A DNA stretch of 64,000 nt, taken from positions 85,839 to 149,838 of the forward strand of contig CAZUHV010000001.1 of NCBI GenBank assembly GCA_964620965.1, in the 5' to 3' direction. This DNA comes from an uncultured Pseudomonadales bacterium (GTDB lineage: Bacteria > Patescibacteriota > Microgenomatia > UBA1400 > PJMF01). The first letter of the stretch is position 1, and each line of letters starts with the position of its first letter. Both the position numbers and the translations under genes were made by a program. The notes beneath the pieces are model-generated. The model was not told the DNA's origin. It made no database searches and saw only the letters and a list, made by a program, of their open reading frames with translations. Shown in pieces: positions 48,161-63,253 of this stretch.

Positions 48161-48200
48161 CGAATTGCTCTGAGAAACTCTCAAAGCAATTAAGTATTAA
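48161..48200. repeat. 40-bp palindromic repeat, copy 2
   Basis: CGAATTGCTCTGAGAAACTCTCAAAGCAATTAAGTATTAA. On the minus strand the hairpin is followed by a T-run, so it may act as the terminator of 48190..48495. Confidence 0.8.
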
Positions 48201-48495
48201 AAATCAAATAATCATACAGAAACATAACTGCCCACAAACAAAAGATTGAGATAATCAAATAAGCAAGCTTTCTATTCCAACCCCGCTTCAACTGTGCCAA
48301 CGAGCCCAACAGAATTACTATCTCAAATGGATAAGTAATAAAATCACAGTAACTTCCACACCAATTCTTTTCTAAAATAACTACATCTGTTGCAAAGCTA
48401 TTTAAACCAAAACTTTGCTGCACATCTCTAACAATATGAAACACTGAGAAAAGTACTAACAAACCAAAAACATATTTGTATGCATTCTTTCTCAT
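48190..48495 (-). CDS. hypothetical small membrane protein
   Basis: Three TM helices. ATGA overlap with the upstream nuclease gene. Confidence 0.35.
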   Translation of the reverse strand: MRKNAYKYVFGLLVLFSVFHIVRDVQQSFGLNSFATDVVILEKNWCGSYCDFITYPFEIVILLGSLAQLKRGWNRKLAYLIISIFCLWAVMFLYDYLIFNT

Positions 48496-49997
48496 ATCAC
48501 TTTTTGTAACTCTTCCAATATCCTCACCATCGCAAAAGTATCAAGTGTGCAATAACGGCTCAAATCATCCATAATCATTGGTCGTTTTTCTCTGTTTTTA
48601 CCTTCCAAAACGGTTTGTGTCCACATTCTGCGAGCTAGTAATCCATCAGAAACATTAAGCTCTTTGTAGCTTAACTCAGGAGCTAATACTGGCATAACTT
48701 TCTTGACCGAGGCACTGCCAAAAAAATCTTTATCAAAAAACCACATCTTAGCAAATGGAGTCATCAAATCGTCTATGCGATCATTGAGATCTGCCAGGAA
48801 ATCTGCATACTCTGGAAACAGTTCTGCCATTCGATCATTACAACCTTTTTCATAACTCATGTTCCAAGTAAGCACAGTACCAGTTGTACCAATATCTTGC
48901 TTGAGCTGAGCTAATAATCCTGGCATTGGATCTGTTGCTTGGTTATGTAAATACTCTAAGTGTTTTAACTCTGCACCTGGGCTTTCAATTATGTGTAACG
49001 AATATTGGAATGGATAATCCTTGTATGGGCTATATCCATCAAATTGAGGAACTACTGTTGAGAGTGTTTCGTAATCAAAAAAGTAGAGTGGATACTGGAA
49101 CGTATCTAAAAAGGCTTTAATCTTGTCTTTATCAATAATTCGCTGACCAGTTTTAGTGGTTCTAATTTGAACTCGTTGTTTATCTCTTAAAGCTTGGTCT
49201 TCTGTCATCTCGTGAATTGAAGAAATGCCAAGATCTTCTAGATCCCCAAGTTGTTCTGGGCTTGGATAAGCAAGGTTGTAAATGGAGTAGGTGTCATATT
49301 CACCTTTGATGTTTTTATAAATCTCCATCCATTCTTCAAGCCACTGTGATGATTTGTTTGGAATACAAAGTTGATTAATAAATCTTGGTGAAACATCTGG
49401 CATAGTTCTATTTGCCAATACTTCAAAGGCCATATCTACTTGTAAAAGTGTGGTGCTCATCAAGGCGCGAACTTTATCTGTGATATCTGTTTTATCAACC
49501 AAACCAGCAGGATCAATTTCCCCCTCACGCACATATTCTTTGTTTGCATGCATCACAGCTACATTGCGAATTTTTAGTCCTGCTTTTTCTAGTACCAACA
49601 GTTGAAATGCTAAATCATATTCGTGTTCTGGTTTAGCTTTAGTGCTAGCTTTAATTTCAATTAAGTCAAAAGTTTCATCCGGATGTTTGAATAATACATC
49701 AGTAATACAAGTTAAATTATCAACTTCAAACCTGCCTTGAAAAATAACTTCTGCGCCTTGTTGTAAAGCTTGCTGAGTTCGAGCAGGTAGACTCAAATAC
49801 TCATCATAATTATTGAATCCAAGTCGAACCCCATTGGGAAATAGGCTTTCGGCATATTGCTCAAAGTCATGACCTGCATCAAACATGGCTTGCGTATTGT
49901 CATCAACTGGAGGTAATTTATTTTTGTCATACTTCTTTAGCCACAACCATGCAGGATGGCGAAGAAAGAGCATGTAGTCGGATTTACTTAATATCAT
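48492..49997 (-). CDS. dual-nuclease protein: N-terminal PD-(D/E)XK (Cas4/RecB-like) plus C-terminal DnaQ/RNase H-like exonuclease-like domain (DUF2779-like)
   Basis: D...FDLIEIKAS fits the PD-(D/E)XK core. C-terminal LYFFDYETL resembles DEDD exonuclease motif I. The start ATG overlaps the RloC-like stop (ATGA). Confidence 0.5.
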   Translation of the reverse strand: MILSKSDYMLFLRHPAWLWLKKYDKNKLPPVDDNTQAMFDAGHDFEQYAESLFPNGVRLGFNNYDEYLSLPARTQQALQQGAEVIFQGRFEVDNLTCITDVLFKHPDETFDLIEIKASTKAKPEHEYDLAFQLLVLEKAGLKIRNVAVMHANKEYVREGEIDPAGLVDKTDITDKVRALMSTTLLQVDMAFEVLANRTMPDVSPRFINQLCIPNKSSQWLEEWMEIYKNIKGEYDTYSIYNLAYPSPEQLGDLEDLGISSIHEMTEDQALRDKQRVQIRTTKTGQRIIDKDKIKAFLDTFQYPLYFFDYETLSTVVPQFDGYSPYKDYPFQYSLHIIESPGAELKHLEYLHNQATDPMPGLLAQLKQDIGTTGTVLTWNMSYEKGCNDRMAELFPEYADFLADLNDRIDDLMTPFAKMWFFDKDFFGSASVKKVMPVLAPELSYKELNVSDGLLARRMWTQTVLEGKNREKRPMIMDDLSRYCTLDTFAMVRILEELQKVI

Positions 49998-52213
49998 ATT
50001 TTCTCAAGCAAACTTAAAAAGTCGTCTAATTTCTGTATTTTTTCAGGTTCATTCAACTTCATGATTTCGTGTTGATCATGCATATGTTCATGCCAGTTAT
50101 TTTCTAAAATATCATCTTTAACCAAACACTTGTCACCAATTTTTTCTAGATATGCAGAAATACTCCCCTCAGAAAGAGTCTTTTCATCCAAAGAGAAATA
50201 ATACTTGTGTCTCAAAATTCTTTCCAAGCACTTACGTACCTTACCAATTGCTTCATCAACATTTCTATTGTTATCAACTGAATCTTTAATAAACTTTACG
50301 CTTTTGAAAAATTCTTCCTCAATAACGTTTTCCACATCACACTTTACTATGCTAGAGCCTGCAGAACCTGAGTTTTTAATTTGAAGAAATTTGGTTTCAT
50401 TTTTTGGTATTTTGCTTTGCAATCTAGCCAAAAAGCTATCATCATGAGTAAGTATAATTACCTGCTCTGGCTCTTCATTTGATTGATTTTTAATTTTGAC
50501 TATAGTCCTAACCAACGCGTCCTTGCGATTTGAATCTAAACTTGAAAAAGGATCGTCAAAGACAACAATTTTTTTGTTTAAAAATTTATCTGTTTGTAAT
50601 TTTGATATAAAAATTGCAATTGCCAACAATCTTCTATCGCTATCACTTAACGTATTCCCAAAGTAATATTTATCCTTAGGCTCAATGTCGTCCTGAGATC
50701 TTTTATTTGAAATAGGAACAACTTGACTGCCAAATGCAAATTCGTAGTCAACAAAATGTGATTTTGATCTAGTTAAGTTCGAGCGACTATCTAATTTCTG
50801 TATTGAGAACTCTGCCCTAAGTTCATTTTTCAATACTTTTTCAATTTCTTTTTGATTATCTACAATTGTTTTTTTTGTCTCCTGATTAATTTCGTCTCTT
50901 AGGTTTTTCACTTCCTTCTTCTTGTCTTTGATGAGTTTTTCTGCATCAAAATAGTCTTTTGTTAAACTCACTCCTTCTTTGCTATGCCTGTATTTAGATA
51001 GCTTTAACTTTTTTAACTGATTTAGTAAATTTCGATAATCTTGTTCAGAGAATTCCTGTTTAAGTATTGAATCAAATACAGGGTGAAGTTTTTTAATTTC
51101 AATCAAGAATAATTGAAATGGTTTATCTTTTGAGATTAAATCAATCGAATAGTTTAAATTCTTTAATTTTTTATCAATTTCTTTGTCTAGATCCGCTTTA
51201 TTTTCCAGTAACTCCTTCTTATTTAACAATTCATCACAGTTAATTCCTAGAGGGTTAAGTTTTGCTATTTCTGCTTCAGGATCAAATCGCAAAAAGTTTT
51301 CTCCCGCTGATTCAATTTCTTTTTGAACTTGTCTATACGTTGCGCCAAAAACGCTCTTAAAATCTTTTATTAAATCTTTTACAGGCTCTAAGTCTTGCCC
51401 ACAAAAAACACAGTTTTTAGACTCATCTTTTAAGATAGCAACACCTTCTGAAATAAAATTCTTAGATGCACTTGCGTCTTTCCAATGATTATGAATATGA
51501 TTTTCAATGCTTACTTCAGCTGAAGTATCTAACGATTTCTCCATTGCTAACTTAAAGTTCTCAAATTTTGACGCCAATGGGGAATGCTTAATCTGTTCCT
51601 TAATTGATGAAATATTATTTAGGCGTTTAATTTCTGTTTCTTTTTTTGAAATTTTGTCATCAACACTCTCTACTTTTTCTGCTTTAAGAAATTCCTCAAA
51701 AGTTCCCAGATCAACTTTTATATATTTATTTTTTACTTTGTCTCTATCACTTTCTAAATCTGCTTGTTCATTACGAAGCCTCTTGAGAGCAAGTACTTTA
51801 TCACCTATGTTTTCTCCTACAAATATTCCATGAAGTGAAGCTTTATGTTCAAAATCAATTTGATCTCCTAGATAAACGTAATTTTGAACAAAGTTACTAT
51901 CAAATACAACAATATTTGGATTACTCCAGTTACCGTTTGATAGAGTGGAATGTTTATTATTTTCATCCAAAATATCAATCTCAGAACTTTCTGAATATCC
52001 GAAAGTCTTTTTACCCTTCAACAATCCTTGATCAGAATTTTTTAAGGATCTAAATATCGTTGTCAAAGTGCTTTTGCCATAAGTGTTATGTCCAAAAATA
52101 ACAGTTCTTTTGAAAAAACGTAATTCATCATCTCCAGAACATGTAAATTGCTTGAACTTTCCAATTCCTTTGATTTTTATAATTTTACTAATCATTTTTT
52201 CCCTTACTACCAC
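49994..52213 (-). CDS. RloC/PrrC-like ABC-type ATPase with coiled-coil zinc-hook insert, putative restriction-linked anticodon nuclease
   Basis: Walker A FGHNTYGKSTL. Long Lys/Glu coiled coil containing CVFC (CxxC hook). D-loop/Walker B VVFDDPFSSLD. C-terminal R-x3-H (RILRH) and a His cluster. Co-operonic with hsdR. Alternative start at 52195 (MISKIIKIKG). Confidence 0.55.
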   Translation of the reverse strand: MVVREKMISKIIKIKGIGKFKQFTCSGDDELRFFKRTVIFGHNTYGKSTLTTIFRSLKNSDQGLLKGKKTFGYSESSEIDILDENNKHSTLSNGNWSNPNIVVFDSNFVQNYVYLGDQIDFEHKASLHGIFVGENIGDKVLALKRLRNEQADLESDRDKVKNKYIKVDLGTFEEFLKAEKVESVDDKISKKETEIKRLNNISSIKEQIKHSPLASKFENFKLAMEKSLDTSAEVSIENHIHNHWKDASASKNFISEGVAILKDESKNCVFCGQDLEPVKDLIKDFKSVFGATYRQVQKEIESAGENFLRFDPEAEIAKLNPLGINCDELLNKKELLENKADLDKEIDKKLKNLNYSIDLISKDKPFQLFLIEIKKLHPVFDSILKQEFSEQDYRNLLNQLKKLKLSKYRHSKEGVSLTKDYFDAEKLIKDKKKEVKNLRDEINQETKKTIVDNQKEIEKVLKNELRAEFSIQKLDSRSNLTRSKSHFVDYEFAFGSQVVPISNKRSQDDIEPKDKYYFGNTLSDSDRRLLAIAIFISKLQTDKFLNKKIVVFDDPFSSLDSNRKDALVRTIVKIKNQSNEEPEQVIILTHDDSFLARLQSKIPKNETKFLQIKNSGSAGSSIVKCDVENVIEEEFFKSVKFIKDSVDNNRNVDEAIGKVRKCLERILRHKYYFSLDEKTLSEGSISAYLEKIGDKCLVKDDILENNWHEHMHDQHEIMKLNEPEKIQKLDDFLSLLEKI

Positions 52214-55047
52214 TCAAACATATCTACTATATTCTCAATAGCACTCCTCACACGATCGATGATGCTTTGACGTTCTAAAATTCTTGGGGCTTCTGGGAGA
52301 AGATCAACAATATCTTGTCCATGTGGAAGTTTTTGTGTATATAAATACTCGCCAATAATATTTTCAAACTTTTCTAGTGGAATATTTTCAGCTTGTGCTA
52401 CTTCTCGCAGTGCAGAGGAGCGTTCACTTGCCCAGAATTTCTCAAAGGCTTCTTCAACATTTTCATCTTCTCTGATCTTAGGTAGATTCTCCTCAATAAA
52501 TTTACGGATAAGTTCTTTCTTTTTGCGAAGCTTCACATCGCGATCAAATAATCTGAGAATATCTTCTGTTTTCTTCTCACGAACTACATCTGAACTAATG
52601 TCTTTAAGTCCAGCAATAAGCTGAATAATGTAGTCAAAATCAACTACATCACGAACAGTGAGCTCTAATTCAAAGTCGATTTGATCCAAAATGGATTCTT
52701 TTTCAGGCTCATGAGTTTTTCTTTCCTCATGAATATCAAGATACTTACTTTGGTAATCATAAAATTCTTGTTCTGTAATACCCAAGTCATCAAATGAGAA
52801 TTCTGCAAAGGTTTCGAGTGAAGACTTAATTCGAAGCAAATCTCTAAAGCTTTTAACAAATGCAGCCTTATCTTCTTCACCTCGCAAATCATCAACTGAA
52901 GAAACAGTAGGTACTTTTACTCGTAAGTGAGCAAGCTTTTCTTCAAACTCCTTTTTCTGAACTTCATATGGCTTCTTGAAAACAACTTCCTTAGCGTTTT
53001 CATCACCAAACAAAGCAAGAGCTTTGTCAGTATTCAGTTTAAGGTTTCTAAAAGAAACAATGTTTCCATGCGGTTTGTCAGAGTTCAGCAAACGATTTGT
53101 TCTGGAATAAGCCTGGATTAGTCCGTGATATCTCAAATTCTTATCAACGTACAAAGTGTTGAGTCTTGGGCTATCAAATCCAGTTAAGAACATGTTTACC
53201 ACAATAGTTAGATCAACTTCTTTGTTTTTAATTCGCTTCTGTAGATCTCGATAATAGTCATAGAATCTGTCAGTAGAGTAATTTGTGCCGAAATCCTTGT
53301 TGTAGTTTTTGATACAGCTTTCTAAGAAATCTCTTGAATGCTGATTTATCACATCACCCTTATCAGCAAACACGTCAACATCAAGCATGTCTGCACTATC
53401 ATCCTCATTTGCTTGATAGGTAAAAATTGTAGCGATTTTAAAATCATCAGGTTTCTTAGCAGAAAGCAGAGTGTAGTATTTCTTTAATATCTCAATACTT
53501 GGAGTGCAAAAAAGAGCATTAAACTTGCCATTCTTTGTTTTACGCTTCCAATCATGAAGGATATATTCAGCAATTTTTTCTATTCGCTCATCACTTTCGA
53601 GAACTTCTTTGGTGTCAATACCTTCAACCATAGTTTCAGCAAAGATGTCAGCATCTAGAGTATCAGGGTCTTTTTTCTTGTACTTACCAACATACTCAAC
53701 TGCAAAACCAAGCACATTATTGTCATCAATAGCGTGGGTAATAATATAGCGGTGCAAGCATTCACCAAATACATCTTTTGTAGTTACACCACCAACATTG
53801 TTATCAGCAAATATCGGTGTTCCAGTAAAACCAAAGAGTTGAGCTTTATTAAAATGACTCTTTATTCTATTGTGGGTTAATCCAAACTGACTGCGGTGAC
53901 ACTCATCAAAAATAATGACTACTTTTTCATCTTGCAGATCTTCAAATTGTTTAAGATACGATTCTCTGGAAACTGCAATATCTAGCTTTTGGATTGTAGT
54001 AACTATGAGTTTTCTCTTTGGCTCTTTAAGCTGTTTTACTAAGTTACGAGTATTATCCGTTCCATCAACAGAACCATCAGAAAAGTGATTAAACTCTTTT
54101 GTTGTTTGAATATCGAGGTCTTTACGATCAACTACAAAGATAACTTTTTTAATTTCGGGTAACTGTGAAAGAATCTGACTGGCTTTGTATGAAGTCAAGG
54201 TTTTTCCAGAACCAGTGGTATGCCAAATATAGCCATTCTGGTTAGTTTCTTTAACCTTTTGCTCAATAGCTCTGACTGCATAGTACTGATAAGGGCGGAG
54301 TACCATTGGAATTTTAAGAGATTCATGCAACACAATATATTCAGCAATCATGGATGAGATTTTGCATTTTTCTAAAAACGCCTCAGCAAATTGATTAAGT
54401 TGTGTAATTTTTTTGTTTTCTTCATCTGTCCAATAGAAGGTTTGTTCAAATGATTGCTTTGGATTATTAGAAAAGTATTTTGTGTTTACACCATTAGAGA
54501 TAATAAAAATCTGGACGTATTCGAATAAAGTTCCTGAAAAAGAATGTTTGTGATAGCGTTGAATCTGATTGAAAGCCTCCTTCATTTCAACGCCACGGCG
54601 TTTGAGCTCAATTTGCACTAAGGGAAGACCATTTATGAGAAGGGTAACGTCATAGCGATTTTCATACCTTCCAGCTTGAGTGACTTGATTTGTGACTTGG
54701 TACTCATTCTTGCACCACTTATCCATGTTGAAAAATCGAACCCAGAACTTTGTCTCATCATCACGAGTCAGCACAAATCTATCTCGCAAAGTTTTTGCTT
54801 TTACAAAGCGGTCACCTTTTTCAAGATGATTGAGTATGCGAGAAAATTCGGTATCAGAGAAAATTGTGTTGTTAAACTTTTCTAGTTGTGACTTAAGATT
54901 TTGATTTAATGACTCTACATCTGGCAAAGAAACCCTATCAAAACCCAAGTTTCCAAGTTGTGCTATTAATTCGTTTTCTAGTTGTAGTTCTGATTGCGCC
55001 ATAATTTTATCTATACAAACATTTGTTGTAACAGTCCCTTTTTCCAC
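52207..55047 (-). CDS. hsdR: type I restriction enzyme R subunit
   Basis: SF2 helicase motif I GYIWHTTGSGKTLTS. DEAH box FDECHRSQ. N-terminal nuclease region. The likely true start is 55002 (MAQSELQ). Confidence 0.85.
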   Translation of the reverse strand: MEKGTVTTNVCIDKIMAQSELQLENELIAQLGNLGFDRVSLPDVESLNQNLKSQLEKFNNTIFSDTEFSRILNHLEKGDRFVKAKTLRDRFVLTRDDETKFWVRFFNMDKWCKNEYQVTNQVTQAGRYENRYDVTLLINGLPLVQIELKRRGVEMKEAFNQIQRYHKHSFSGTLFEYVQIFIISNGVNTKYFSNNPKQSFEQTFYWTDEENKKITQLNQFAEAFLEKCKISSMIAEYIVLHESLKIPMVLRPYQYYAVRAIEQKVKETNQNGYIWHTTGSGKTLTSYKASQILSQLPEIKKVIFVVDRKDLDIQTTKEFNHFSDGSVDGTDNTRNLVKQLKEPKRKLIVTTIQKLDIAVSRESYLKQFEDLQDEKVVIIFDECHRSQFGLTHNRIKSHFNKAQLFGFTGTPIFADNNVGGVTTKDVFGECLHRYIITHAIDDNNVLGFAVEYVGKYKKKDPDTLDADIFAETMVEGIDTKEVLESDERIEKIAEYILHDWKRKTKNGKFNALFCTPSIEILKKYYTLLSAKKPDDFKIATIFTYQANEDDSADMLDVDVFADKGDVINQHSRDFLESCIKNYNKDFGTNYSTDRFYDYYRDLQKRIKNKEVDLTIVVNMFLTGFDSPRLNTLYVDKNLRYHGLIQAYSRTNRLLNSDKPHGNIVSFRNLKLNTDKALALFGDENAKEVVFKKPYEVQKKEFEEKLAHLRVKVPTVSSVDDLRGEEDKAAFVKSFRDLLRIKSSLETFAEFSFDDLGITEQEFYDYQSKYLDIHEERKTHEPEKESILDQIDFELELTVRDVVDFDYIIQLIAGLKDISSDVVREKKTEDILRLFDRDVKLRKKKELIRKFIEENLPKIREDENVEEAFEKFWASERSSALREVAQAENIPLEKFENIIGEYLYTQKLPHGQDIVDLLPEAPRILERQSIIDRVRSAIENIVDMFEW

Positions 55048-56237
55048 TCTTTTGCTTCTTTTATTTGGTTAACTTTTAATTCTATTAACTGGTCAATGGA
55101 TGAAACAAAATCAACGATTTTTGCTTGTTCTTCTTCGGAAGGATATGGTATCGGCATATCCATTAAATCTGAGGTTGATATTGCCATACGGTCGTGACGT
55201 GCTCCGTAGTTTGCAACTTTTTTCATATATTTATGCCAAAGACTAGTGTCGAAATATTTTTCATAAAAATACTTGTTTCCTTTTTTCAATTCAAGAACTG
55301 TATATAATGGAGACATTACACCAGTTTGGAGTGAATTCATTTTCATAGGACCAACGGGAGCACTTGTTGATATTCTAGGGTTGTATACAAAGTCATCAAT
55401 TTCAACAACATAATAATTCATTAAATTATTCTGATTCACAATATCTCTATCAAAATAATCATTTTGGCTCACAATCCCTTCTGAAGCTGAATTAGTCAAA
55501 ACATGATTTATTTTATTGTTAGTATTCTTTTTTGTTTTTCTTAAAAAAATATCTTTGAGTTTTCTCATTTCCCAATCTGGGTATTTTTTACTATCTTTAC
55601 CATTAAATCTTAATTCTTTTGTAAAAATCTTTTGAGTCATTCCTTTCTTATATTCTTCAAGCGTATCCTTTTGTTTTTCTAGGTTAATAATCCAACCATT
55701 TATTGTTGATAAAAAAGATGCCAATTTTTTTTGTTCGTCAATGGTTGGAATATTTACTTTAATTGATGAAAAATTTTCATAGAATAAGTATTGTCTTACT
55801 CCACCCTCAACATATCTTTTGACAAATCTATTAAATAAGTCAGACTTAAAAAAATGATACATAAATATATCATCAACATTGTCTGTTGTTGAAAAACAAA
55901 CATAAAGTGAGCTAATGATGACATTGTCTAAATCACCACTAAATCCAATGGAACCCACATTTATTCTGGCAGGGTTATATGCAAATGTATTTCTCTTAAC
56001 TACTTTATACATTGAAGTATCATAATTTCTCTCATTACTATCAAGTCCATCAAATTGTTCAGATTGTGGTAAAAAACCTCTTACATTATTAATCGAATAT
56101 ATTGGATATTTTTTTCCACTTTTATTTTTATTATTTTTTTTCTTTGTAATCTCACCAAGTTTATATTGAGTCCACATTCCAAAGAATCCTGGGAACCTCA
56201 ATTGTGGCTTTGCTTGCATATTTTTACTACTTTTCAT
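55011..56237 (-). CDS. hsdS: type I restriction-modification specificity subunit
   Basis: Two target-recognition domains separated by conserved helical spacers (LEKQKDTLEEYKKGMTQKIF ... LKVNQIKEAKEWKKGLLQQMF). Confidence 0.8.
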   Translation of the reverse strand: MKSSKNMQAKPQLRFPGFFGMWTQYKLGEITKKKNNKNKSGKKYPIYSINNVRGFLPQSEQFDGLDSNERNYDTSMYKVVKRNTFAYNPARINVGSIGFSGDLDNVIISSLYVCFSTTDNVDDIFMYHFFKSDLFNRFVKRYVEGGVRQYLFYENFSSIKVNIPTIDEQKKLASFLSTINGWIINLEKQKDTLEEYKKGMTQKIFTKELRFNGKDSKKYPDWEMRKLKDIFLRKTKKNTNNKINHVLTNSASEGIVSQNDYFDRDIVNQNNLMNYYVVEIDDFVYNPRISTSAPVGPMKMNSLQTGVMSPLYTVLELKKGNKYFYEKYFDTSLWHKYMKKVANYGARHDRMAISTSDLMDMPIPYPSEEEQAKIVDFVSSIDQLIELKVNQIKEAKEWKKGLLQQMFV

Positions 56238-57816
56238 ACTTAAAAGGATTGTCTATTCCTAACTCATCACAAAATGTATCTAGTTCTTTTCTATATTTTT
56301 GTTCTTTATGTTGATAATCTTTCAAATTTTTTGCAACTAGATCTAAATCCACAGGCTCTTCCTCTTCAAATGAATCAATATATCTAGGTATATTGAGATT
56401 AAAGTCATTTTCATATATCTCTTTCAGACTAACTCTACGAGAATATTTATCAACTTCTTTTCTTTCATTATATGTATGAAATATTTTATCAATGTGACTA
56501 TCACTAAGACGGTTTTGTGTGCCAACCTTTTCAAATTCGCTTGATGCATCAATAAAAAAAATATCATCATCTTCTTGTCTGCATTTTTTGAAAACTAATA
56601 CTATCGTTGGGATGCCTGTTCCATAAAACAAGTTTGCTGGCAAGCCAATAACAGCATCTAAGTAATTTTGCTTCTCAATAATATATTGTCTAATAGTTGC
56701 ATTTGACCCTCCAGTGAAAAGCACGCCATGTGGCAAAATAACAGCCATAGTTCCATTTTCGGTCAGGTGGTAAAGCATATGTGTCACAAATGCATAATCA
56801 GCTCTACTTTTAGGAGCTAACCTTCCATATTGTGAAAACCTTTCATCATGTAACAAAGCTGGATCTGACTCTCCCTTCCATTTTGCTGAAAATGGAGGAT
56901 TGGCTACCACTGCCTCAGCTTGCAGATCTATGTGCATATCATCTGTAAGCGTGTCACCTTGTCTAATGCTGAAATGATCAAAGTGAACTCCATGAAGGAT
57001 CATATTCATGCGAGCTAAGTTGTATGTAGTCGGGTTAAGCTCTTGTCCATAATAGGAAACTACGTCTGCATACTCACCAATTCTTAAGAGAAGAGAACCA
57101 GATCCACAGGTTGGGTCATAGACTGATTTAACTCGTTTTTTGCCATGAGTCACAATCTTTGCAAGAAGTCTAGAAACTTGAGCTGGAGTATAGAACTCTC
57201 CGCCTTTTTTACCTGCCCCTGCGGCAAACTCACCAATTAGATACTCATATGCATCACCAAGCAAGTCACTTTTTGTGTCTTCAAGTTTAAAATCAATACC
57301 ACTAAGCAGAGTCAGCACTTCAACAATTACTTCATTCTTTTTGTTTTCTGACTTACCCAACTTGGTTGAAGTTAAATCTACGTCATCAAATAATCCTTTG
57401 AAATCATCTTCGCTAGCTGTTCCCATTGAGGTTTGCTCAATAGAGTTAAGGACATTCTTGAGGTTTTCTAAAATAAAAATATCTTGACCTTTAACTTCAC
57501 CATTACCTTTTCTGACAATGTAAGAAAAAAGCTCTGTAGGTTTGAGGAAAAAGCCTAAGTGATCAATGGTAGCTTTTTTAATATGCTCGACAATCTGTTG
57601 ACCTTCGTCAGTTGAGTCATCTACCTCAGCAAAAGAGAATTTTTCACTAGCCAGAAGTTTTTCATCAATATAGCGAGCAAGTTTTTCTGAAAGATATTTA
57701 TAGAAAATGAAGCCAAGAATATAGTTTTTATATTCGTCTGCATTCATTTTTCCCCGGAGAACATTGGCTACAGCCCAAAGTTGCTTTTCAAGTAATCGTT
57801 TTTGTTCTCCAGACAT
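56227..57816 (-). CDS. hsdM: type I restriction-modification N6-adenine DNA methyltransferase subunit
   Basis: N-terminal HsdM_N (LWAVANVLRG). SAM motif DPTCGSGSLL. Catalytic NPPF (VANPPFSAKW). Confidence 0.85.
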   Translation of the reverse strand: MSGEQKRLLEKQLWAVANVLRGKMNADEYKNYILGFIFYKYLSEKLARYIDEKLLASEKFSFAEVDDSTDEGQQIVEHIKKATIDHLGFFLKPTELFSYIVRKGNGEVKGQDIFILENLKNVLNSIEQTSMGTASEDDFKGLFDDVDLTSTKLGKSENKKNEVIVEVLTLLSGIDFKLEDTKSDLLGDAYEYLIGEFAAGAGKKGGEFYTPAQVSRLLAKIVTHGKKRVKSVYDPTCGSGSLLLRIGEYADVVSYYGQELNPTTYNLARMNMILHGVHFDHFSIRQGDTLTDDMHIDLQAEAVVANPPFSAKWKGESDPALLHDERFSQYGRLAPKSRADYAFVTHMLYHLTENGTMAVILPHGVLFTGGSNATIRQYIIEKQNYLDAVIGLPANLFYGTGIPTIVLVFKKCRQEDDDIFFIDASSEFEKVGTQNRLSDSHIDKIFHTYNERKEVDKYSRRVSLKEIYENDFNLNIPRYIDSFEEEEPVDLDLVAKNLKDYQHKEQKYRKELDTFCDELGIDNPFKYEK

Positions 57817-57965: not shown

Positions 57966-58079
57966 CTGATACAATTTACAACCAAAAGTAAAGCGTTATA
58001 ACAAGAGCTGCCCACTAGTGAGGTAGCTTTTTTTGTAACACCTGCCCAACAAACTTTAATTAGTGAAAGGGTCGTGTTT

Positions 58080-58412
58080 ATGAAAAAACTCATAGTTCTC
58101 CAAAGCATATTACTTACTTCCTTAGTCGTGGCGAGTCCAGCATTTGCTCAGTCCGCAGAAGTAGGACAAATTCAATCATTTATCCAAGAAGTGATTCAGA
58201 TCATGGTCACTTTGTCTGGCTTTATCGCAGCAGGCTTTATTGTCTGGGGCGGAGTTGGTTACATTACTAGCTCTGGAAATCCAGAAGCTTTAGAAAAATC
58301 TAAAAAGACTATTCTGTATTCTGCAGTCGGGCTGACCTTAGTACTCGGTGCGTTTGTTATCTCAAACATGGTGAGCCAGGTAGCAACTACTGCATTTGGA
58401 TCTGGAATGTAA
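58080..58412 (+). CDS. VirB2/TrbC-like pilin
   Basis: Signal peptide ending AFAQS, then two hydrophobic helices separated by SSGNPEALEKSKKT. The ORF track starts at GTG 58074. The ATG at 58080 has an AAAGGG RBS. Confidence 0.5.
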   Translation: MKKLIVLQSILLTSLVVASPAFAQSAEVGQIQSFIQEVIQIMVTLSGFIAAGFIVWGGVGYITSSGNPEALEKSKKTILYSAVGLTLVLGAFVISNMVSQVATTAFGSGM

Positions 58413-58437
58413 TTGATTAGAAAAGGAATACGTATTG

Positions 58438-59736
58438 ATGAGAAGAGTACTATCAACTATTGGAACAACCGCACTTGTTTTCCTTTTCTTTAGTTCTCCT
58501 GTTTTTGCTCAATCAACTAACCCTGATGTCATAGAATATACAAACAGTACATTACAAATCATCACTTTAATAGCGACCGCATCAGCGGTCTTTTTTTTAG
58601 TTAAAGCAGGATATCTCTACATCACCTCAGCTGGAAAACCTGAAGTTCTTGAGTCTGCCAAGAAAACTATCCGTAATGCAGTTATTGGCTTAACTTTAGT
58701 TTTAGCTGCAAATGTTGTCACCTCTGTTTTTCAGCATGCTTTAAATTCGCAAACAACTACTGGCTCTGGCACACCCATAGATATCGTCAGTATAGAAGCT
58801 GTTGAACCATCTGAAGGACTCACTCAAGTTTTAATTGATGCCATTGGAGGCTTTATCCAAAATATTGTGGAGAGTTCTACTGAGCCAATTGTGAATGGGG
58901 TGCTTGGATACCTGACAACCACACCAACACTTTTAAACAATGAGGTGGTTCGCAATTTTTGGTTTATTTCAGTCGGTATTGTGGACGCTTTATTCATCTT
59001 GGTTGTAGCCCTAATGGGCTTGCAAGTCATGAGTGCTAGTACCTTTGGTTTTGATGAAGTAGAGCTTAAACAACTGCTTCCAAGGTTAGGACTTACTTTC
59101 TTGGCTGCAAATATTTCACTCTTTCTAGCAGACTACGCCATTATCACCTGCAATATGTTGGTAAAAGTTATCTTAGATTCAACAGGAGGACTGAACCATG
59201 CTTGGATAGAAGCTGCTTTTAACCCTACAGCAGTCATTTCTGGAACTACGCCACTGATCATTTTGATATTTATGGTGCTGTTTTTAATTGTCTCAATCGT
59301 GTTACTGCTTATGTACATCAGTAGGCTCATTTTTATTTCCCTTGGGGCAGTTTTGTCACCATTTATCTTTCTGCTTTCAGCTCTGCCTAAATTTTCTGAC
59401 TTTGCCTTGATTGCCATAAAGACTTACCTTGTTAGTATTTTTATCGTGTTTGTTCATGTGGTGATTATTCAGCTCGCCAGCTCATTTTTAACTCTGCCAG
59501 ACCACAGTGAAAACTCAATCATTTCAATTGCCGTCGGGATTGGACTTTTTATCACCTTACTTAAAACCCCAAACCTCATGATTCAGATGGTGATGTATAC
59601 CGCTAATTCTGGAATAATGAAAAAGCTCGGGAACCAAATTATTAACGTGATGACAACAGATAACGCATCCGTTGCTAGTAGAGCTCAAGCTCAAAATACT
59701 GCCTCAAAACTAACTAGAAAGGCCATCAAAATATGA
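58438..59736 (+). CDS. fusion of VirB2-like pilin module to VirB6/TrbL-like polytopic membrane protein
   Basis: The first roughly 100 aa are a paralogue of the preceding pilin (VFAQS...SAGKPEVLESAKKT...). These are followed by at least 6 TM helices typical of VirB6. ATGA overlap with the next gene. Confidence 0.5.
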   Translation: MRRVLSTIGTTALVFLFFSSPVFAQSTNPDVIEYTNSTLQIITLIATASAVFFLVKAGYLYITSAGKPEVLESAKKTIRNAVIGLTLVLAANVVTSVFQHALNSQTTTGSGTPIDIVSIEAVEPSEGLTQVLIDAIGGFIQNIVESSTEPIVNGVLGYLTTTPTLLNNEVVRNFWFISVGIVDALFILVVALMGLQVMSASTFGFDEVELKQLLPRLGLTFLAANISLFLADYAIITCNMLVKVILDSTGGLNHAWIEAAFNPTAVISGTTPLIILIFMVLFLIVSIVLLLMYISRLIFISLGAVLSPFIFLLSALPKFSDFALIAIKTYLVSIFIVFVHVVIIQLASSFLTLPDHSENSIISIAVGIGLFITLLKTPNLMIQMVMYTANSGIMKKLGNQIINVMTTDNASVASRAQAQNTASKLTRKAIKI

Positions 59737-60239
59737 GAAGCCAAGTCATACCAGCTCAAATAACCACAGTAGAAGATAAGATTGCAGGCAACTTTAGTCT
59801 GACACAGATCATGCTACTGCTTATGCCAGTCTTGATTGCAACATTTATCTACACTTTCCTACCACCTACCATGACTTTTGTTATCTATAAGCTAGTTCTA
59901 GCAAGTATCTTTGCAGTTTTAAGTATCACGCTAGCTGTCAGAGTCAAAGGCAGAATCATCTCCAGTTGGTTAGTTGTTTTGATTCGGTACAACATTAGAC
60001 CAAAGTATTACATCTATAACAAAAACTCAGTGATTTACCGAGAAGTTATAAAGCCAGAAGTTCAAAATATTGTTGTTAAACAGAAACATGATGAAAAAGT
60101 TGCACAAAAACAACTTAACTCCCCAGATATCAAAGATGTATTAAAACTTCGCCATCTTCTAGACACAACTGATTTCAATCTAACCTATCGCTCTGGCAAG
60201 AAAGGAGGACTCAATGTGGCTTTTGAAAAAATCTCTTAA
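59733..60239 (+). CDS. VirB3/PrgI-like small two-TM protein
   Basis: N-terminal hydrophilic region, two adjacent TM helices, cytoplasmic tail. Sits between the VirB6-like and VirB4 genes. Confidence 0.4.
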   Translation: MRSQVIPAQITTVEDKIAGNFSLTQIMLLLMPVLIATFIYTFLPPTMTFVIYKLVLASIFAVLSITLAVRVKGRIISSWLVVLIRYNIRPKYYIYNKNSVIYREVIKPEVQNIVVKQKHDEKVAQKQLNSPDIKDVLKLRHLLDTTDFNLTYRSGKKGGLNVAFEKIS

Positions 60240-60834
60240 CAAAATTAGCTCTCGTAACCAAATTGCTATCAAAGAAGTTCGTGATGGAATCTTGGTTCTA
60301 CCAAATAACGAACACCGACTGATTATTGAAACTTCCTCAGTTAACTTTGAGCTTAAAAGTGAAGCGGAACAAGATGTATTAATTGATAGCTTTCAAACAT
60401 TTCTAAACTCACTGCCCTCTCAACTGCAAATCCTGATTCGCATTCGTGAAGTAGATATTGACCAATACGTTGATTCCATTGATCTACTCAAAGAAACGGA
60501 AGATGAAAAGCAATACATAGAACAAATTAATGACTACACTCAATTTATTCGCCAACTCGTATCTGGCAACAAAATCTTGTCTCGCAAGTTTTACATCGTC
60601 CTACCTTACAAACCGGAAACCAAAGGCAATACTTTTGAGCTAGCCCAAGCTCAACTCAATTTAACTCAAGATATGGTAATTAAAGCTCTAGAAAAACTAG
60701 GAATGAAGGCAAGGAAGCTCGATAGCTTAGAAGTTTTACATCTCTTTTATAGCTTCTACAACAAGGGACAGATAAAAACTCAGGAATTAACCAGCACTAC
60801 TATGAAAGCAATACTACAACACAACTATGTTTAA
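60214..60834 (+). CDS. VirB4 N-terminal domain protein (split VirB4, part 1)
   Basis: Pattern AIKEVRDGILVLPNNEHRLIIETSSVNFELKSEAEQ...FQTFLNSLPSQLQI resembles the VirB4/TcpF N-terminal domain. Its stop overlaps the next start (ATGTTTAA). Confidence 0.45.
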   Translation: MWLLKKSLNKISSRNQIAIKEVRDGILVLPNNEHRLIIETSSVNFELKSEAEQDVLIDSFQTFLNSLPSQLQILIRIREVDIDQYVDSIDLLKETEDEKQYIEQINDYTQFIRQLVSGNKILSRKFYIVLPYKPETKGNTFELAQAQLNLTQDMVIKALEKLGMKARKLDSLEVLHLFYSFYNKGQIKTQELTSTTMKAILQHNYV

Positions 60835-62641
60835 TACTGTTCAAAACTACTACCACAACTTACAAAAATGGAAGCGAAAAAAGGTTCGTAAGTTTAAAAC
60901 CCAACAAGAGAAAAAACGAAGAGAACGCCTTTCACTTCAGTTTAGTTTTGGTGAACAAGATCAAGTTGACTTAATTTCTTATTCTGGCTTGATGGAAGAA
61001 TCTACCTACCTACAAATGGGTGATACCTATGTTCGAACGCTTTTTATCTCTGGCTACCCATATGTTGCTAATGTTGGTTGGCTCAATATGCTAATTAACT
61101 TCAACCATGACTTAGATATTTCATATCACATTGAGCACGTTGACCCTTTGATGGCATTGCCAAAACTGAATCGAAAAATTACTGAGCTTGAGTCAACCAA
61201 ACGAAGCATGCTAAAGGCAGGAAAAGTGATTGGTTCTGAAATCACTGACCCACTTGAATCTGCTATGGAACTGAAAGACAAAATCCAAAGAGGTCAGGAA
61301 AAACTGTTTCAAATTTCTATTTACATGACCTTGAGTGCAAATAGTTTGGAAGAGCTCAATAAAACCACACAAGTTCTTGAAACCATCATGGCATCTAGAA
61401 TGTTTTACATCAAAACTGCCACTTTCCAACAACTTGAAGGCTTGCAATCAATTCTGCCAAGAGGCGAAAACCAACTCAATCAAAAACGAAACTTGGATAG
61501 CTCCAGTGCAGCTTTAACTTTCCCATTTGTTTCATCCGAACTTGTCCAAGAATCAGGTATTTTATATGGAATTAATAAATCAAATAATTCACTGGTAATT
61601 GTAGATCGCTTCTCTTTAAATAACGCTAACTCAATTATCTTTGCTCAATCAGGAAGTGGTAAAAGTTACACTGCCAAAGTTGAAATTTTAAGACAACTAA
61701 TGCAACAAACAAAAGTTATCGTTATTGATCCTGAACGGGAGTATAAACAACTAGCAAAATCAGTTAAAGGCACATACATTCGCTTATCTGCCACTTCTAA
61801 AGAAAAGATTAACCCCTTTGATTTCTCACTCAAATCATTTACGGGTCAAAACGGATTAGCTGAACATATTCAAGATCTAACTGAAATTATTTCCCTGATG
61901 GCAGGCTCACTCACAGATGAAGAGCGTGCTGTAGTCGATAAAGCTTTAATTGAAACCTACAAACAATTTGGCATTAGCATGCGAAAAGGCAACTACGAAG
62001 CTGATCAAAAATTTCCGCTACTTAAAGATTTCTATAAGGTGCTCAAGAAAATGAAACAAAAAGAGCTATGTCACAGGCTGGATAAATTCGTTTCTGGCTC
62101 GCTTTCCAGTGTGTTTGATTCTCAAACCAATGTAGATCTTTCCAACCGCTTAGTCATTTTTGATATCAAAGATTTGGATGAGTCACTCAGGCAAATAATG
62201 ATTCTAGCCACTGCTAATTTTGTACACTCTGAAGTTAAATCTAACCCACAAAAACGTATCTTAGTAATTGATGAAGCCTGGTTGCTTTTGCAACATGAAG
62301 AAAGCGCGAGGTTCTTAGCAGGATTGGTCAGACGTGCACGCAAACACTACTTGGGAGTCACTCTCATTTCTCAGCAAGCTAATGACTTTTTAAACCAAGA
62401 ATATGGCAGAGCAATTGCCTCGCAATCATCACTCAGAATATTGATGAAGCAGGATACAACTTCAATTAAAAAAGTAGTCCAGGAATTTAACTTGAGTGAG
62501 TACGAGCAACAATTTCTACTTACTTGTGACCGAGGTGAAGCTTTAATAATTGCTGACCAAAACCATGTGGCTGTAAAAATAGTTGCCTCAGAAAAAGAAC
62601 ATCCAATGTTAACCACTGATCCGAAAGATTTATATTTATAG
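60827..62641 (+). CDS. virB4: VirB4/TrbE-family type IV secretion ATPase (split VirB4, part 2)
   Basis: Walker A AQSGSGKSYT. Walker B RILVIDEAWLLL. GVTLISQQANDF motif. Confidence 0.75.
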   Translation: MFNTVQNYYHNLQKWKRKKVRKFKTQQEKKRRERLSLQFSFGEQDQVDLISYSGLMEESTYLQMGDTYVRTLFISGYPYVANVGWLNMLINFNHDLDISYHIEHVDPLMALPKLNRKITELESTKRSMLKAGKVIGSEITDPLESAMELKDKIQRGQEKLFQISIYMTLSANSLEELNKTTQVLETIMASRMFYIKTATFQQLEGLQSILPRGENQLNQKRNLDSSSAALTFPFVSSELVQESGILYGINKSNNSLVIVDRFSLNNANSIIFAQSGSGKSYTAKVEILRQLMQQTKVIVIDPEREYKQLAKSVKGTYIRLSATSKEKINPFDFSLKSFTGQNGLAEHIQDLTEIISLMAGSLTDEERAVVDKALIETYKQFGISMRKGNYEADQKFPLLKDFYKVLKKMKQKELCHRLDKFVSGSLSSVFDSQTNVDLSNRLVIFDIKDLDESLRQIMILATANFVHSEVKSNPQKRILVIDEAWLLLQHEESARFLAGLVRRARKHYLGVTLISQQANDFLNQEYGRAIASQSSLRILMKQDTTSIKKVVQEFNLSEYEQQFLLTCDRGEALIIADQNHVAVKIVASEKEHPMLTTDPKDLYL

Positions 62642-63253
62642 ATGCATGCTGTACTTACCGCTCACACCATTTGGTCTTATAGAAGGGAATTTCAGTTTGT
62701 TGCGTTTTCATTTTTGGTTTTAATCTCACTGCCCATCATTGCAGTAGTTATCCTGATGCACACAGGAATCAACATTGTCTCTGATGCTCTGATTGACGTT
62801 GAGCCAGAAACACAAACTATTCAAATCAAAAACCCTGCAGATGGGTCTGTCGTTAAAGAAGTATCAAAAAAAGTGGCATGGCCTGTTCAAGGAGTAACAA
62901 CACTTGAATTTGCTAAATCTAGTGGCTACCAAAAGTTTCATGCAGGAATCGATATTGCCAACTCTCAAGGGAAAGTGGGAGATAAAATATCACCTTTTAT
63001 GGATGGGACTGTAACTTATGCTGGCGAGATTTTTTGGGGATATGGAAAACACGTAATTATTGATCATGGAGACAACATGACATCTGTATATGCTCACTTA
63101 AATCGAATTACTGTTTATGAAGGAGAGGAAGTAAAAGTGAGTGATTCAATTGGAGAAATGGGGAGTACCGGCTGGTCTACAGGACCGCATTTGCATTTTG
63201 AGATTAGAGTCTATGGAGTGCCAATAGATCCTACGATGATTCTAGGTATCTAA
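62642..63253 (+). CDS. M23 family metallopeptidase (LytM-like peptidoglycan hydrolase, VirB1 functional analogue)
   Basis: HAGIDIA, DxGxNM (IIDHGDNM) and GSTGWSTGPHLHFEIR motifs. N-terminal TM. Starts 1 nt after the VirB4 stop. Confidence 0.8.
   Translation: MHAVLTAHTIWSYRREFQFVAFSFLVLISLPIIAVVILMHTGINIVSDALIDVEPETQTIQIKNPADGSVVKEVSKKVAWPVQGVTTLEFAKSSGYQKFHAGIDIANSQGKVGDKISPFMDGTVTYAGEIFWGYGKHVIIDHGDNMTSVYAHLNRITVYEGEEVKVSDSIGEMGSTGWSTGPHLHFEIRVYGVPIDPTMILGI

Follow-up and report, generated by a model that had tools for sequence, protein, structure and literature searches.

A 64,000-nt stretch of contig CAZUHV010000001.1 (hereafter the window; all coordinates are window positions) carries on its minus strand an operon in which the genes of an EcoR124-like type I restriction-modification (R-M) system are followed by a gene of the RloC family (49994-52195), judging from motifs and family searches. 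We conclude that the product of this gene is an RloC-family protein in which an ATP-binding cassette (ABC) ATPase with a CxxC-containing insert is joined to a predicted HEPN RNase, that it is coupled to the type I R-M system and sits in an exchangeable cargo slot behind hsdR, and that the RNase would act as a tRNA-cutting back-up to restriction. We give this reading as a whole a probability of roughly two in three. The RNase activity, the tRNA target, zinc binding and the trigger are inferred by analogy with characterized RloC and PrrC.

The RloC-like protein

RloC (restriction-linked ORF C; COG4694, 'wobble nucleotide-excising tRNase'), with Geobacillus kaustophilus RloC (GkaRloC) as its prototype, was defined as a PrrC-related ABC ATPase roughly twice as large as PrrC, with an insert of coiled-coil/CX2C kind and, C-proximal, the triad Arg-X3-Glu-X36-52-His (Davidov & Kaufmann 2008, PMC2610378). 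Mutation of R692, E696 or H737 in GkaRloC abolishes its anticodon nuclease activity (PMC2610378). These features can be recognized in the window protein. Residue numbers below refer to its 733-aa form, and conservation refers to an alignment of 36 relatives with 21-62% identity.

The ABC motifs are all present on the minus strand. The Walker A motif or P-loop, GHNTYGKST (52067-52093), contains the invariant residues N37, G40, K41 and T43. In the ABC signature-like motif LSDSDRR (50630-50650), D520 is invariant and S517 is conserved in at least 90% of the sequences. The Walker B motif and D-loop, VVFDDPFSSLD (50534-50566), contain D547, D548, P549, S552 and D554, all invariant, and so is the switch histidine H584 of the H-loop ILTHDD (50438-50455). 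The ATPase domain is interrupted by a largely alpha-helical insert (residues about 115-458). The CxxC 'zinc hook' motif CVFCGQ (51395-51412, minus strand) lies in a central loop near its middle, with C262 and C265 invariant and Q267 conserved in at least 90%, which gives a family consensus of CxFCGQ. His233 (51496-51498), 29 residues before the CxxC, is also invariant in all 36 family members and could be an additional zinc ligand. Towards the C-terminus, RKCLE (50222-50236, minus strand) supplies Arg654 and, after three residues, Glu658 (Arg invariant, Glu at least 90%). The invariant His706 (50078-50080, minus strand) follows 47 residues past Glu658, within HEHMHD (50075-50092). The conserved C-terminal pattern of the family is thus R-x3-E-x47-H, whose spacing lies within the published one, and R654, E658 and H706 (R660, E664 and H712 in 739-aa numbering) are predicted to be the catalytic triad of the RNase domain.

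Database searches also point to RloC. Pfam AAA_13 (PF13166) matched the protein at 3e-24 in the profile hidden Markov model search that an earlier note on this DNA had proposed; the match extends along the protein to its C-terminus, reaching model position 703 of 713. The best PADLOC match was model PDLC04895 of the candidate family PDC-S06 (3e-59). PDC-S06 is also the best PADLOC match of all 36 aligned relatives, and PDLC04895 that of a 770-aa protein from Rhodoferax ferrireducens T118. Because this model is the best one for the window protein and the Rhodoferax protein alike, the PDC-S06 label is effectively RloC, and appears to be another name for the RloC-like proteins here. The Rhodoferax protein was reached by tblastn against plasmids (E 2e-13), as an annotated 770-aa ATPase gene on the T118 plasmid. 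Compared by organism, 770-aa length and helicase neighbour only, it corresponds to entry 39 in Table S1 of the original RloC survey (PMC2610378), so that homology to a protein matching the originally listed RloC set is detectable. The hhalign comparison of the family alignment with the Rhodoferax protein ran end to end over 748 columns (probability 100, E 4.2e-93). It placed in register CxFCGQ with CPFCGQ, RKCLE with vRlflE, and H706 with fHHD. The C-x-F-C-G signature is shared by the RloC orthologs of the PMC2610378 supplement and the Rhodoferax protein. Furthermore, fragments from JGI that consist of the C-domain only carry the label COG4694 'wobble nucleotide-excising tRNase'. An exhaustive profile search with the C-domain gave 1,150 clusters at E <= 0.001, and the full-length proteins among the best 150 of these clusters are about 730-790 aa long. 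Ten C-domain matches of 340-404 aa were examined as candidates for PrrC and were rejected, as all ten are truncated halves of RloC.

We also built a full-length AlphaFold2 model with the family alignment (predicted local distance difference test score, pLDDT, 87.3). In this model, two long helices (115-159 and 406-458) divide the ABC head and enclose a helical region between them, and C262/C265 lie in a short strand-loop near the middle of the insert. The C-terminal domain (residues 621-733; 49997-50335, minus strand) is all-helical and was assigned with high confidence to the HEPN fold, making it a predicted RNase. HEPN is the fold assigned to PrrC/RloC nucleases (PMC3710099). In a Foldseek search against the PDB, the ATPase part matched SMC/Rad50 heads with coiled coil (E down to 3.5e-10). 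The earlier note had named as adverse to its proposal a C-terminal domain unlike the PrrC nuclease together with SMC/Rad50-type homology lacking nuclease function; the model instead places a predicted HEPN nuclease domain behind the SMC-like head.

Taken together, motifs, homology and the predicted fold indicate that the 733-aa protein is a member of the RloC family, and of RloC type rather than PrrC type. The core of the earlier note's reading, an RloC/PrrC-like zinc-hook ATPase with a C-terminal RNase domain as a putative back-up of a type I R-M operon, is supported by the motifs, the Rhodoferax alignment and the HEPN model. Within this reading, the insert and the lack of a PrrC-model match point to RloC and not to PrrC. 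The peptides GHNTYGKST, CVFC and VVFDDPFSSLD and the His cluster that it quoted reappear on translation. Its proposed active site, RILRH (R-x3-H; R659-H663), is present but variable in the family and is rejected for that reason; R-x3-E...H is conserved instead.

Several points weigh against the RloC assignment and the predicted nuclease function. Neither the window protein nor the C-domain profile reaches the PrrC nuclease domain by sequence, and the window protein does not match the PADLOC PrrC model PDLC02360 at E < 0.01. This model is matched by 9 of the 36 relatives; in the 3 matches inspected, among 10 distant relatives scanned singly, the ATPase part alone is covered (model about 111-264 of 372). 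The bridge to the RloC set is a listed but uncharacterized ortholog, the Rhodoferax protein. About 180 residues of GkaRloC, taken from a machine-read supplement whose rows are probably scrambled, gave no match when compared with the protein database. When the full-length protein and its C-domain were compared with the PDB by sequence and by profile, only spurious low-complexity or helical matches resulted, and no solved PrrC or RloC structure was among the PDB matches by sequence, profile or Foldseek. The canonical HEPN motif Rx4-6H is not evident in the C-domain alignment, where the residues ahead of the invariant H706 vary among relatives ([N/R/K]-x3-4) and include no conserved Arg; the PrrC/RloC versions of HEPN are described as distinct in sequence from classical HEPN (Anantharaman et al. 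2013, PMC3710099).

Organization of the operon

The open reading frame (ORF) list and family searches revealed six co-directional ORFs on the minus strand with minimal spacing (48190-57816). The first is hsdM, which encodes the 529-aa methyltransferase subunit (56227-57816; TIGR00497 4.6e-146, model 3-513 of 515; Pfam N6_Mtase and HsdM_N). It overlaps by 11 nt with hsdS (55011-56237), encoding a 408-aa specificity subunit with two target-recognition domains (Pfam Methylase_S in two stretches; PADLOC Specificity_I 8.6e-107). The 931-aa restriction subunit is encoded by hsdR (52207-55002; TIGR00348 4.2e-146; HSDR_N, SWI2_SNF2, T1R_D3-like and EcoR124_C, the last at 1.9e-57). Its start is given here as ATG 55002, which yields the length recorded in relatives (931 aa), versus GTG 55047 as called (946 aa). 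Thus, complete M, S and R genes with full-length family matches (TIGR00497, Methylase_S twice, TIGR00348 with EcoR124_C) lie in one operon, and by these matches the type I R-M genes are intact. The EcoR124-like C-terminal domain of HsdR places the system with the EcoR124, type IC-like family.

The RloC-like gene (49994-52195) follows hsdR after a junction of 11 nt (52196-52206), which contains the ribosome-binding site TAAGGGAAAAA. The AAA_13 ORF as called is longer (49994-52213, 739 aa). ATG 52195 is most likely the start, giving 733 aa rather than 739, because AAGGGA stands upstream of it, it lies 11 nt past the hsdR stop, and 733 aa is the length of nearly all close homologs. This ORF is no chance feature, because its 2.2 kb frame stays open in 30% GC DNA and it has full-length homologs at E = 0. 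A 108-aa ORF (51507-51833, plus strand) lies wholly within the RloC-like gene on the opposite strand, and is presumably spurious.

The ATGA at the RloC-like stop is also the start of the next gene (48492-49997), which encodes a 501-aa protein with a Cas4-like PD-(D/E)XK domain and DUF2779, a predicted 3'-5' exonuclease (DUF2779 4.8e-38; Cas_Cas4 9.4e-5). Its stop in turn is overlapped by 4 nt by a hydrophobic 101-aa ORF (48190-48495), which has no Pfam or PADLOC match. A terminator-like hairpin with a 13-bp stem and a T-run (48163-48191, minus strand) probably marks the end of the six-gene operon. A promoter scan was uninformative, as the number of matches equalled the shuffle expectation. From this arrangement, the RloC-like gene is predicted to be co-transcribed and translationally coupled with the intact EcoR124-like type I R-M system. 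The four minus-strand ORFs of the earlier note (hsdM, hsdS, hsdR and a long ATPase) are thus confirmed by the ORF list and family matches; its length of 739 aa gives way to 733 aa, and the operon, which it had ended at 49994, continues through the DUF2779 gene and the 101-aa ORF to the hairpin.

Exchange of the RloC-like gene for Gabija

HsdR and the DUF2779 protein have relatives of at least 90% identity encoded on another contig of 584 kb, and the RloC-like protein stands alone in its 90% cluster. The gene order of this syntenic sister genome (L034-L037) is type IV secretion system (T4SS)-like genes, hsdM, hsdS, hsdR, cargo, DUF2779, cargo, hairpin and an epimerase gene. By blastn, the hsdR region (window 55100-52196) corresponds to L034 9902-12807 at 91.6%, and the DUF2779 region (window 49986-48507) to L034 17030-18509 at 91.7%; the hairpin region is also kept (window 48200-48149, L034 22352-22401). 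At 52196, a single base ahead of the RloC-like ATG, the homology ends, and it picks up again 11 nt inside DUF2779. Between hsdR and DUF2779, the sister genome carries Gabija (GajA 2e-64, GajB 1.8e-50). The same ribosome-binding site, TAAGGGAAAAA, precedes both the RloC-like gene and the sister gajA; it is inherited and used by both cargos. The GC content is 30.4% for the RloC-like gene, 35.5% for hsdR and 37.4% for the DUF2779 gene. The position between hsdR and DUF2779 is an exchangeable slot, and we regard its content as second-line defence cargo because the sister genome has Gabija precisely there.

The DUF2779 gene is a resident, conserved flank of this slot and not a partner of the RloC-like gene, because its 91.7% copy is kept in the sister genome without an RloC-like gene. 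A functional partnership was considered and rejected, since DUF2779 occurs in none of the 17 other homolog contexts and is retained beside Gabija. The DUF2779 protein falls into a 90%-identity cluster with Dojkabacteria proteins. Its family is a widespread fusion of a predicted Cas4-like nuclease and a 3'-5' exonuclease, of which one member is quasi-essential in the minimal Mycoplasma JCVI-syn3.0 (PMC13621843).

Other parts of the locus differ from the sister genome to various degrees. The sister identity is about 87% for hsdM and about 92% for hsdR, and hsdS is the sole part of the shared R-M operon without DNA-level similarity (window 55101-56232 vs L034:8752-9901). Because hsdS cannot be aligned with the sister genome at the DNA level, the specificity of the system has diverged; turnover of the specificity subunit is typical of type I systems. 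A second variable slot lies between DUF2779 and the conserved hairpin. In the window it holds the 101-aa ORF, and in the sister genome (L034:18561-22297) a GmrSD_N/AlbA_2 protein (PADLOC HEC-05-like), a PD-T4-3-like 123-aa ORF, DUF2726 and an acetyltransferase. Divergent from the operon, a T4SS-like cluster (58074-63253, plus strand) shares 86.6% identity with its sister counterpart. Synteny with L034 assigns to this cluster a TrbC/VirB2-like pilin, T4SS_pilin, PrgI-like, TraC-like, a VirB4-like ATPase and Peptidase_M23. The cluster seems resident rather than a recently arrived mobile element. The 'mobile-element-rich region' of the earlier note is therefore not what the comparison indicates, as the T4SS-like genes are conserved and it is the defence cargo that varies. 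Its placement of the DNA in an AT-rich, small-genome lineage is reasonable, given the Dojkabacteria cluster and the relatives described below.

Relatives and their genomic contexts

We compared 18 distinct homolog contexts, including the window; the reference-genome scan used 15 closer sequences. Most relatives come from genomes of Patescibacteria, or the candidate phyla radiation (CPR). A search for phage carriage gave no relative among the IMG/VR viral contigs. An R-M system adjoins the gene in 14 of the 18 contexts, and at least six kinds are represented. In type I systems, the RloC-like gene stands after hsdR (window), embedded among the hsd genes (L019, L029, L030, L031, L032) or directly before hsdR with the upstream part cut by the contig end (L016). 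The other neighbours are a type IIS system (AlwI; L001), type III (L021) and a type III-like mod/res pair (L004), a type ISP/IIG fusion (L009), an EcoRI-methylase with GmrSD/HNH (L007, L013), and DUF1156/DUF499/SNF2 (L015). Two contexts have no R-M genes, one with an AlbA_2 neighbour (L017) and one in which the gene is apparently split and the context is not related to defence (L033). The remaining two (L024, L026) are uninformative.

The closest relative of the window R-M system is that of L019 (HsdM 60%, HsdR 53%), which carries an RloC-like gene of 22% identity between hsdS and hsdR. Because the R-M systems are similar but the RloC-like genes are only 22% identical and differently placed, those of L019 and the window were probably captured independently.

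Additional genes accompany some relatives. DUF2130 stands directly beside the RloC-like gene in 4 of the 18 contexts (L009:10208-11614, L021:1908-3182, L026:2814-4130, L029:2884-4128); these contexts are independent, and DUF2130 is upstream in two and downstream in two. The DUF2130 neighbours have no PADLOC match, and the family is listed among PD-(D/E)XK families of unknown function (PMC3424549). DUF2130 may be a recurrent accessory gene or a co-travelling defence gene. In a Cytophagia genome, a Fic/DOC-HTH gene (L032:9457-10515) lies between the RloC-like gene and hsdR, which matches the neighbourhoods of RloC-like, DOC toxin and R-M genes described by Anantharaman et al. 2013 (PMC3710099). 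On a Saccharibacteria contig, a 152-aa Cas4-like PD-(D/E)XK ORF (L024:2689-3147) overlaps the RloC-like start by 4 nt, and about 1.9 kb upstream of the RloC-like gene there is a fragment resembling hsdS. A gene for the RNA ligase RtcB is located on the opposite strand about 5 kb upstream of another RloC-like gene (L009:1690-2853; also L011, L012); in L009, the type ISP gene stands in between, with the RtcB gene about 2 kb upstream of it. RtcB seals the 2',3'-cyclic-phosphate/5'-OH breaks made by anticodon nucleases. The RtcB gene near the L009 gene could provide a repair or reset function, or could be there by coincidence.

Mode of action and alternatives

We propose that the R-M enzyme would serve as the first line of defence, with the ATPase/hook region of the RloC-like protein holding the RNase inactive. 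DNA breaks or failed restriction, which would signal the passage of a phage, may then cause the ATPase/hook region to turn the RNase on. The HEPN domain would cut tRNA anticodon loops, translation would be halted, and the infection would be aborted.

A different regulation is conceivable, in which the protein, like PrrC, docks on HsdMSR, is held silent there, and is freed only once a phage anti-restriction protein has put the enzyme out of action, as a dedicated guard. The tight coupling to hsdR, with its 11-nt gap and shared ribosome-binding site, agrees with such docking, as do the R-M genes adjoining in 14 of 18 contexts and the EcoR124_C domain of HsdR, which belongs to the type IC family of the PrrC partner EcoprrI (PMC2610378). 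However, orthologs that are 58-63% identical stand beside unrelated R-M types without shared subunits (AlwI IIS, type III-like mod/res, type ISP fusion, EcoRI-methylase with HNH), which makes a conserved docking surface on HsdR unlikely. In the sister genome, a 92%-identical hsdR is kept with Gabija behind it. The architecture, moreover, is that of RloC, which is reported to be self-regulated via its hook and a DNA-dependent ATPase (PMC3458546), and the PrrC model does not match the window protein. We thus consider docking on HsdMSR unlikely. The variety of R-M types and the Gabija swap argue for an autonomous sensor of RloC type that is expressed and transferred together with restriction genes, and against a dedicated partner of HsdMSR.

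The ATPase could also control a HEPN RNase with another target, e.g., mRNA or rRNA, like the HEPN enzymes of RnlA/LsoA type or Csm6 type. No tRNA-recognition residues were identified in the window protein, and the triad is all that it shares in sequence with the nuclease domains of validated enzymes. Against another target, the R-x3-E...H spacing is a hallmark of PrrC/RloC nucleases, and the alignment with a listed RloC ortholog runs end to end. Both characterized members of the ABC-HEPN group are reported as anticodon nucleases (PMC2610378, PMC3458546, PMC3710099). Such a target is accordingly improbable in our view.

It is very improbable that the SMC-like ATPase forms a DNA-targeting pair of Rad50/Mre11 kind with the Cas4-like/DUF2779 nuclease, the C-domain being a mere adaptor. 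The ATGA overlap with the DUF2779 ORF, the resemblance of the ATPase to Rad50/SMC and Lamassu LmuB, and the nuclease genes that flank some relatives (DUF2130 in four contexts, the Cas4-like ORF in L024) speak for such a pair. Synteny largely refutes it, as the sister DUF2779 stands beside Gabija and the other 17 contexts lack DUF2779; DUF2779 proteins are, besides, widespread, one being quasi-essential in the minimal Mycoplasma (PMC13621843), and an adaptor would not need the invariant triad of the C-domain. It is scarcely credible that the R-M operon carries the gene along as a decaying or inactive relic: some RloC orthologs do have poor ATPase or anticodon nuclease motifs (PMC2610378) and the L033 relative looks split in a non-defence context, but the window ORF is full length, contains every invariant residue of the family, and has a good ribosome-binding site and coupled translation.

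Returning to the autonomous RloC-type sensor, we suggest tentatively, and with considerable doubt, that the CPR-centred RloC clade is a portable, partner-independent 'restriction-failure guard' found, at roughly 60% identity, behind at least six kinds of R-M system that differ in mechanism, with DUF2130 as a possible accessory factor. Its insertion slots, and even the ribosome-binding site of the gene upstream, are shared with other back-up systems built on ABC ATPases, such as Gabija. If this is true, the guard would sense a generic outcome of failed restriction (free DNA ends, unmodified replicating DNA) and not one particular enzyme.

Comparison with known systems

The window gene reveals no new kind of system. 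It adds a member to the known RloC family of presumed suicide RNases, in an ordinary type of layered phage defence. Both the occurrence of RloC-like ABC-HEPN genes within R-M operons and the embedding of defence genes in R-M loci have been described before (PMC2610378, PMC3710099, bioRxiv 10.1101/2024.01.29.577857). Only the precise exchange of the RloC and Gabija cassettes and the frequent R-M linkage in the sampled family are mildly new. The locus nevertheless illustrates, cleanly and within well-defined limits, how defence is layered in a CPR genome of ultra-small size, with restriction first and a putative translation-killing RNase second. The nucleotide-precise swap shows that the position just after hsdR serves as a socket into which second-line systems are plugged. 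With its frequent R-M linkage, the clade could help to show what signal couples RloC to restriction.

The window protein resembles RloC in size (733 aa vs 683-897 aa for the orthologs inspected in Table S1, PMC2610378), in its ABC motifs, in the helical insert with a C-x-F-C-G hook, in the Arg-x3-Glu-x36-52-His triad, and in its occurrence beside type I, III and IIS R-M genes. The 2008 survey mapped only 8 of 72 RloC genes to type I or III R-M loci (PMC2610378), whereas R-M systems of all types adjoin the gene in 14 of the 18 contexts of the present sample. GkaRloC-type sequences in the supplement of that survey have a His that precedes the CxxC by 6-7 residues; the present clade lacks this His and has the invariant His233 farther upstream. 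The PADLOC name PDC-S06 is a candidate label only, with no mechanism attached.

PrrC, encoded at the E. coli prr locus within type Ic EcoprrI, shares with the window protein the ABC-ATPase N-domain and the C-terminal nuclease with an Arg-x3-Glu...His triad. Both genes are also linked to an R-M system of the EcoR124 family (type IC-like), and for both proteins a role as a translation-disabling back-up to restriction is presumed. The prrC gene lies between hsdS and hsdR. Invariable linkage to a type Ic R-M locus is counted as a feature of PrrC; the window gene is linked to an EcoR124_C-type system but follows hsdR, and its close orthologs stand beside other R-M types. EcoPrrC, with the triad R320/E324/H356, has 396 aa and no coiled-coil/zinc-hook insert (PMC2610378). 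In contrast to the roughly 400 aa of PrrC, the window protein has 733 aa and an insert of about 345 residues.

Gabija, which consists of the OLD-family ABC ATPase/TOPRIM nuclease GajA and the UvrD helicase GajB, is likewise a second-line defence with an ABC ATPase, and occupies the same slot behind hsdR in the sister genome. A response of Gabija to anti-restriction proteins has been reported (bioRxiv 10.1101/2024.01.29.577857). Unlike the RloC-like gene, it is made of two genes and its effector is a TOPRIM DNA nuclease rather than a HEPN RNase, with homology limited to the ABC fold. Rad50, SMC and Lamassu LmuB have the same split ABC head, antiparallel coiled coil and CxxC in the insert. They differ in lacking a C-terminal HEPN domain and in working with separate nuclease or kleisin partners, whereas the window protein has a much shorter insert (about 345 residues) that is divided into many helices.

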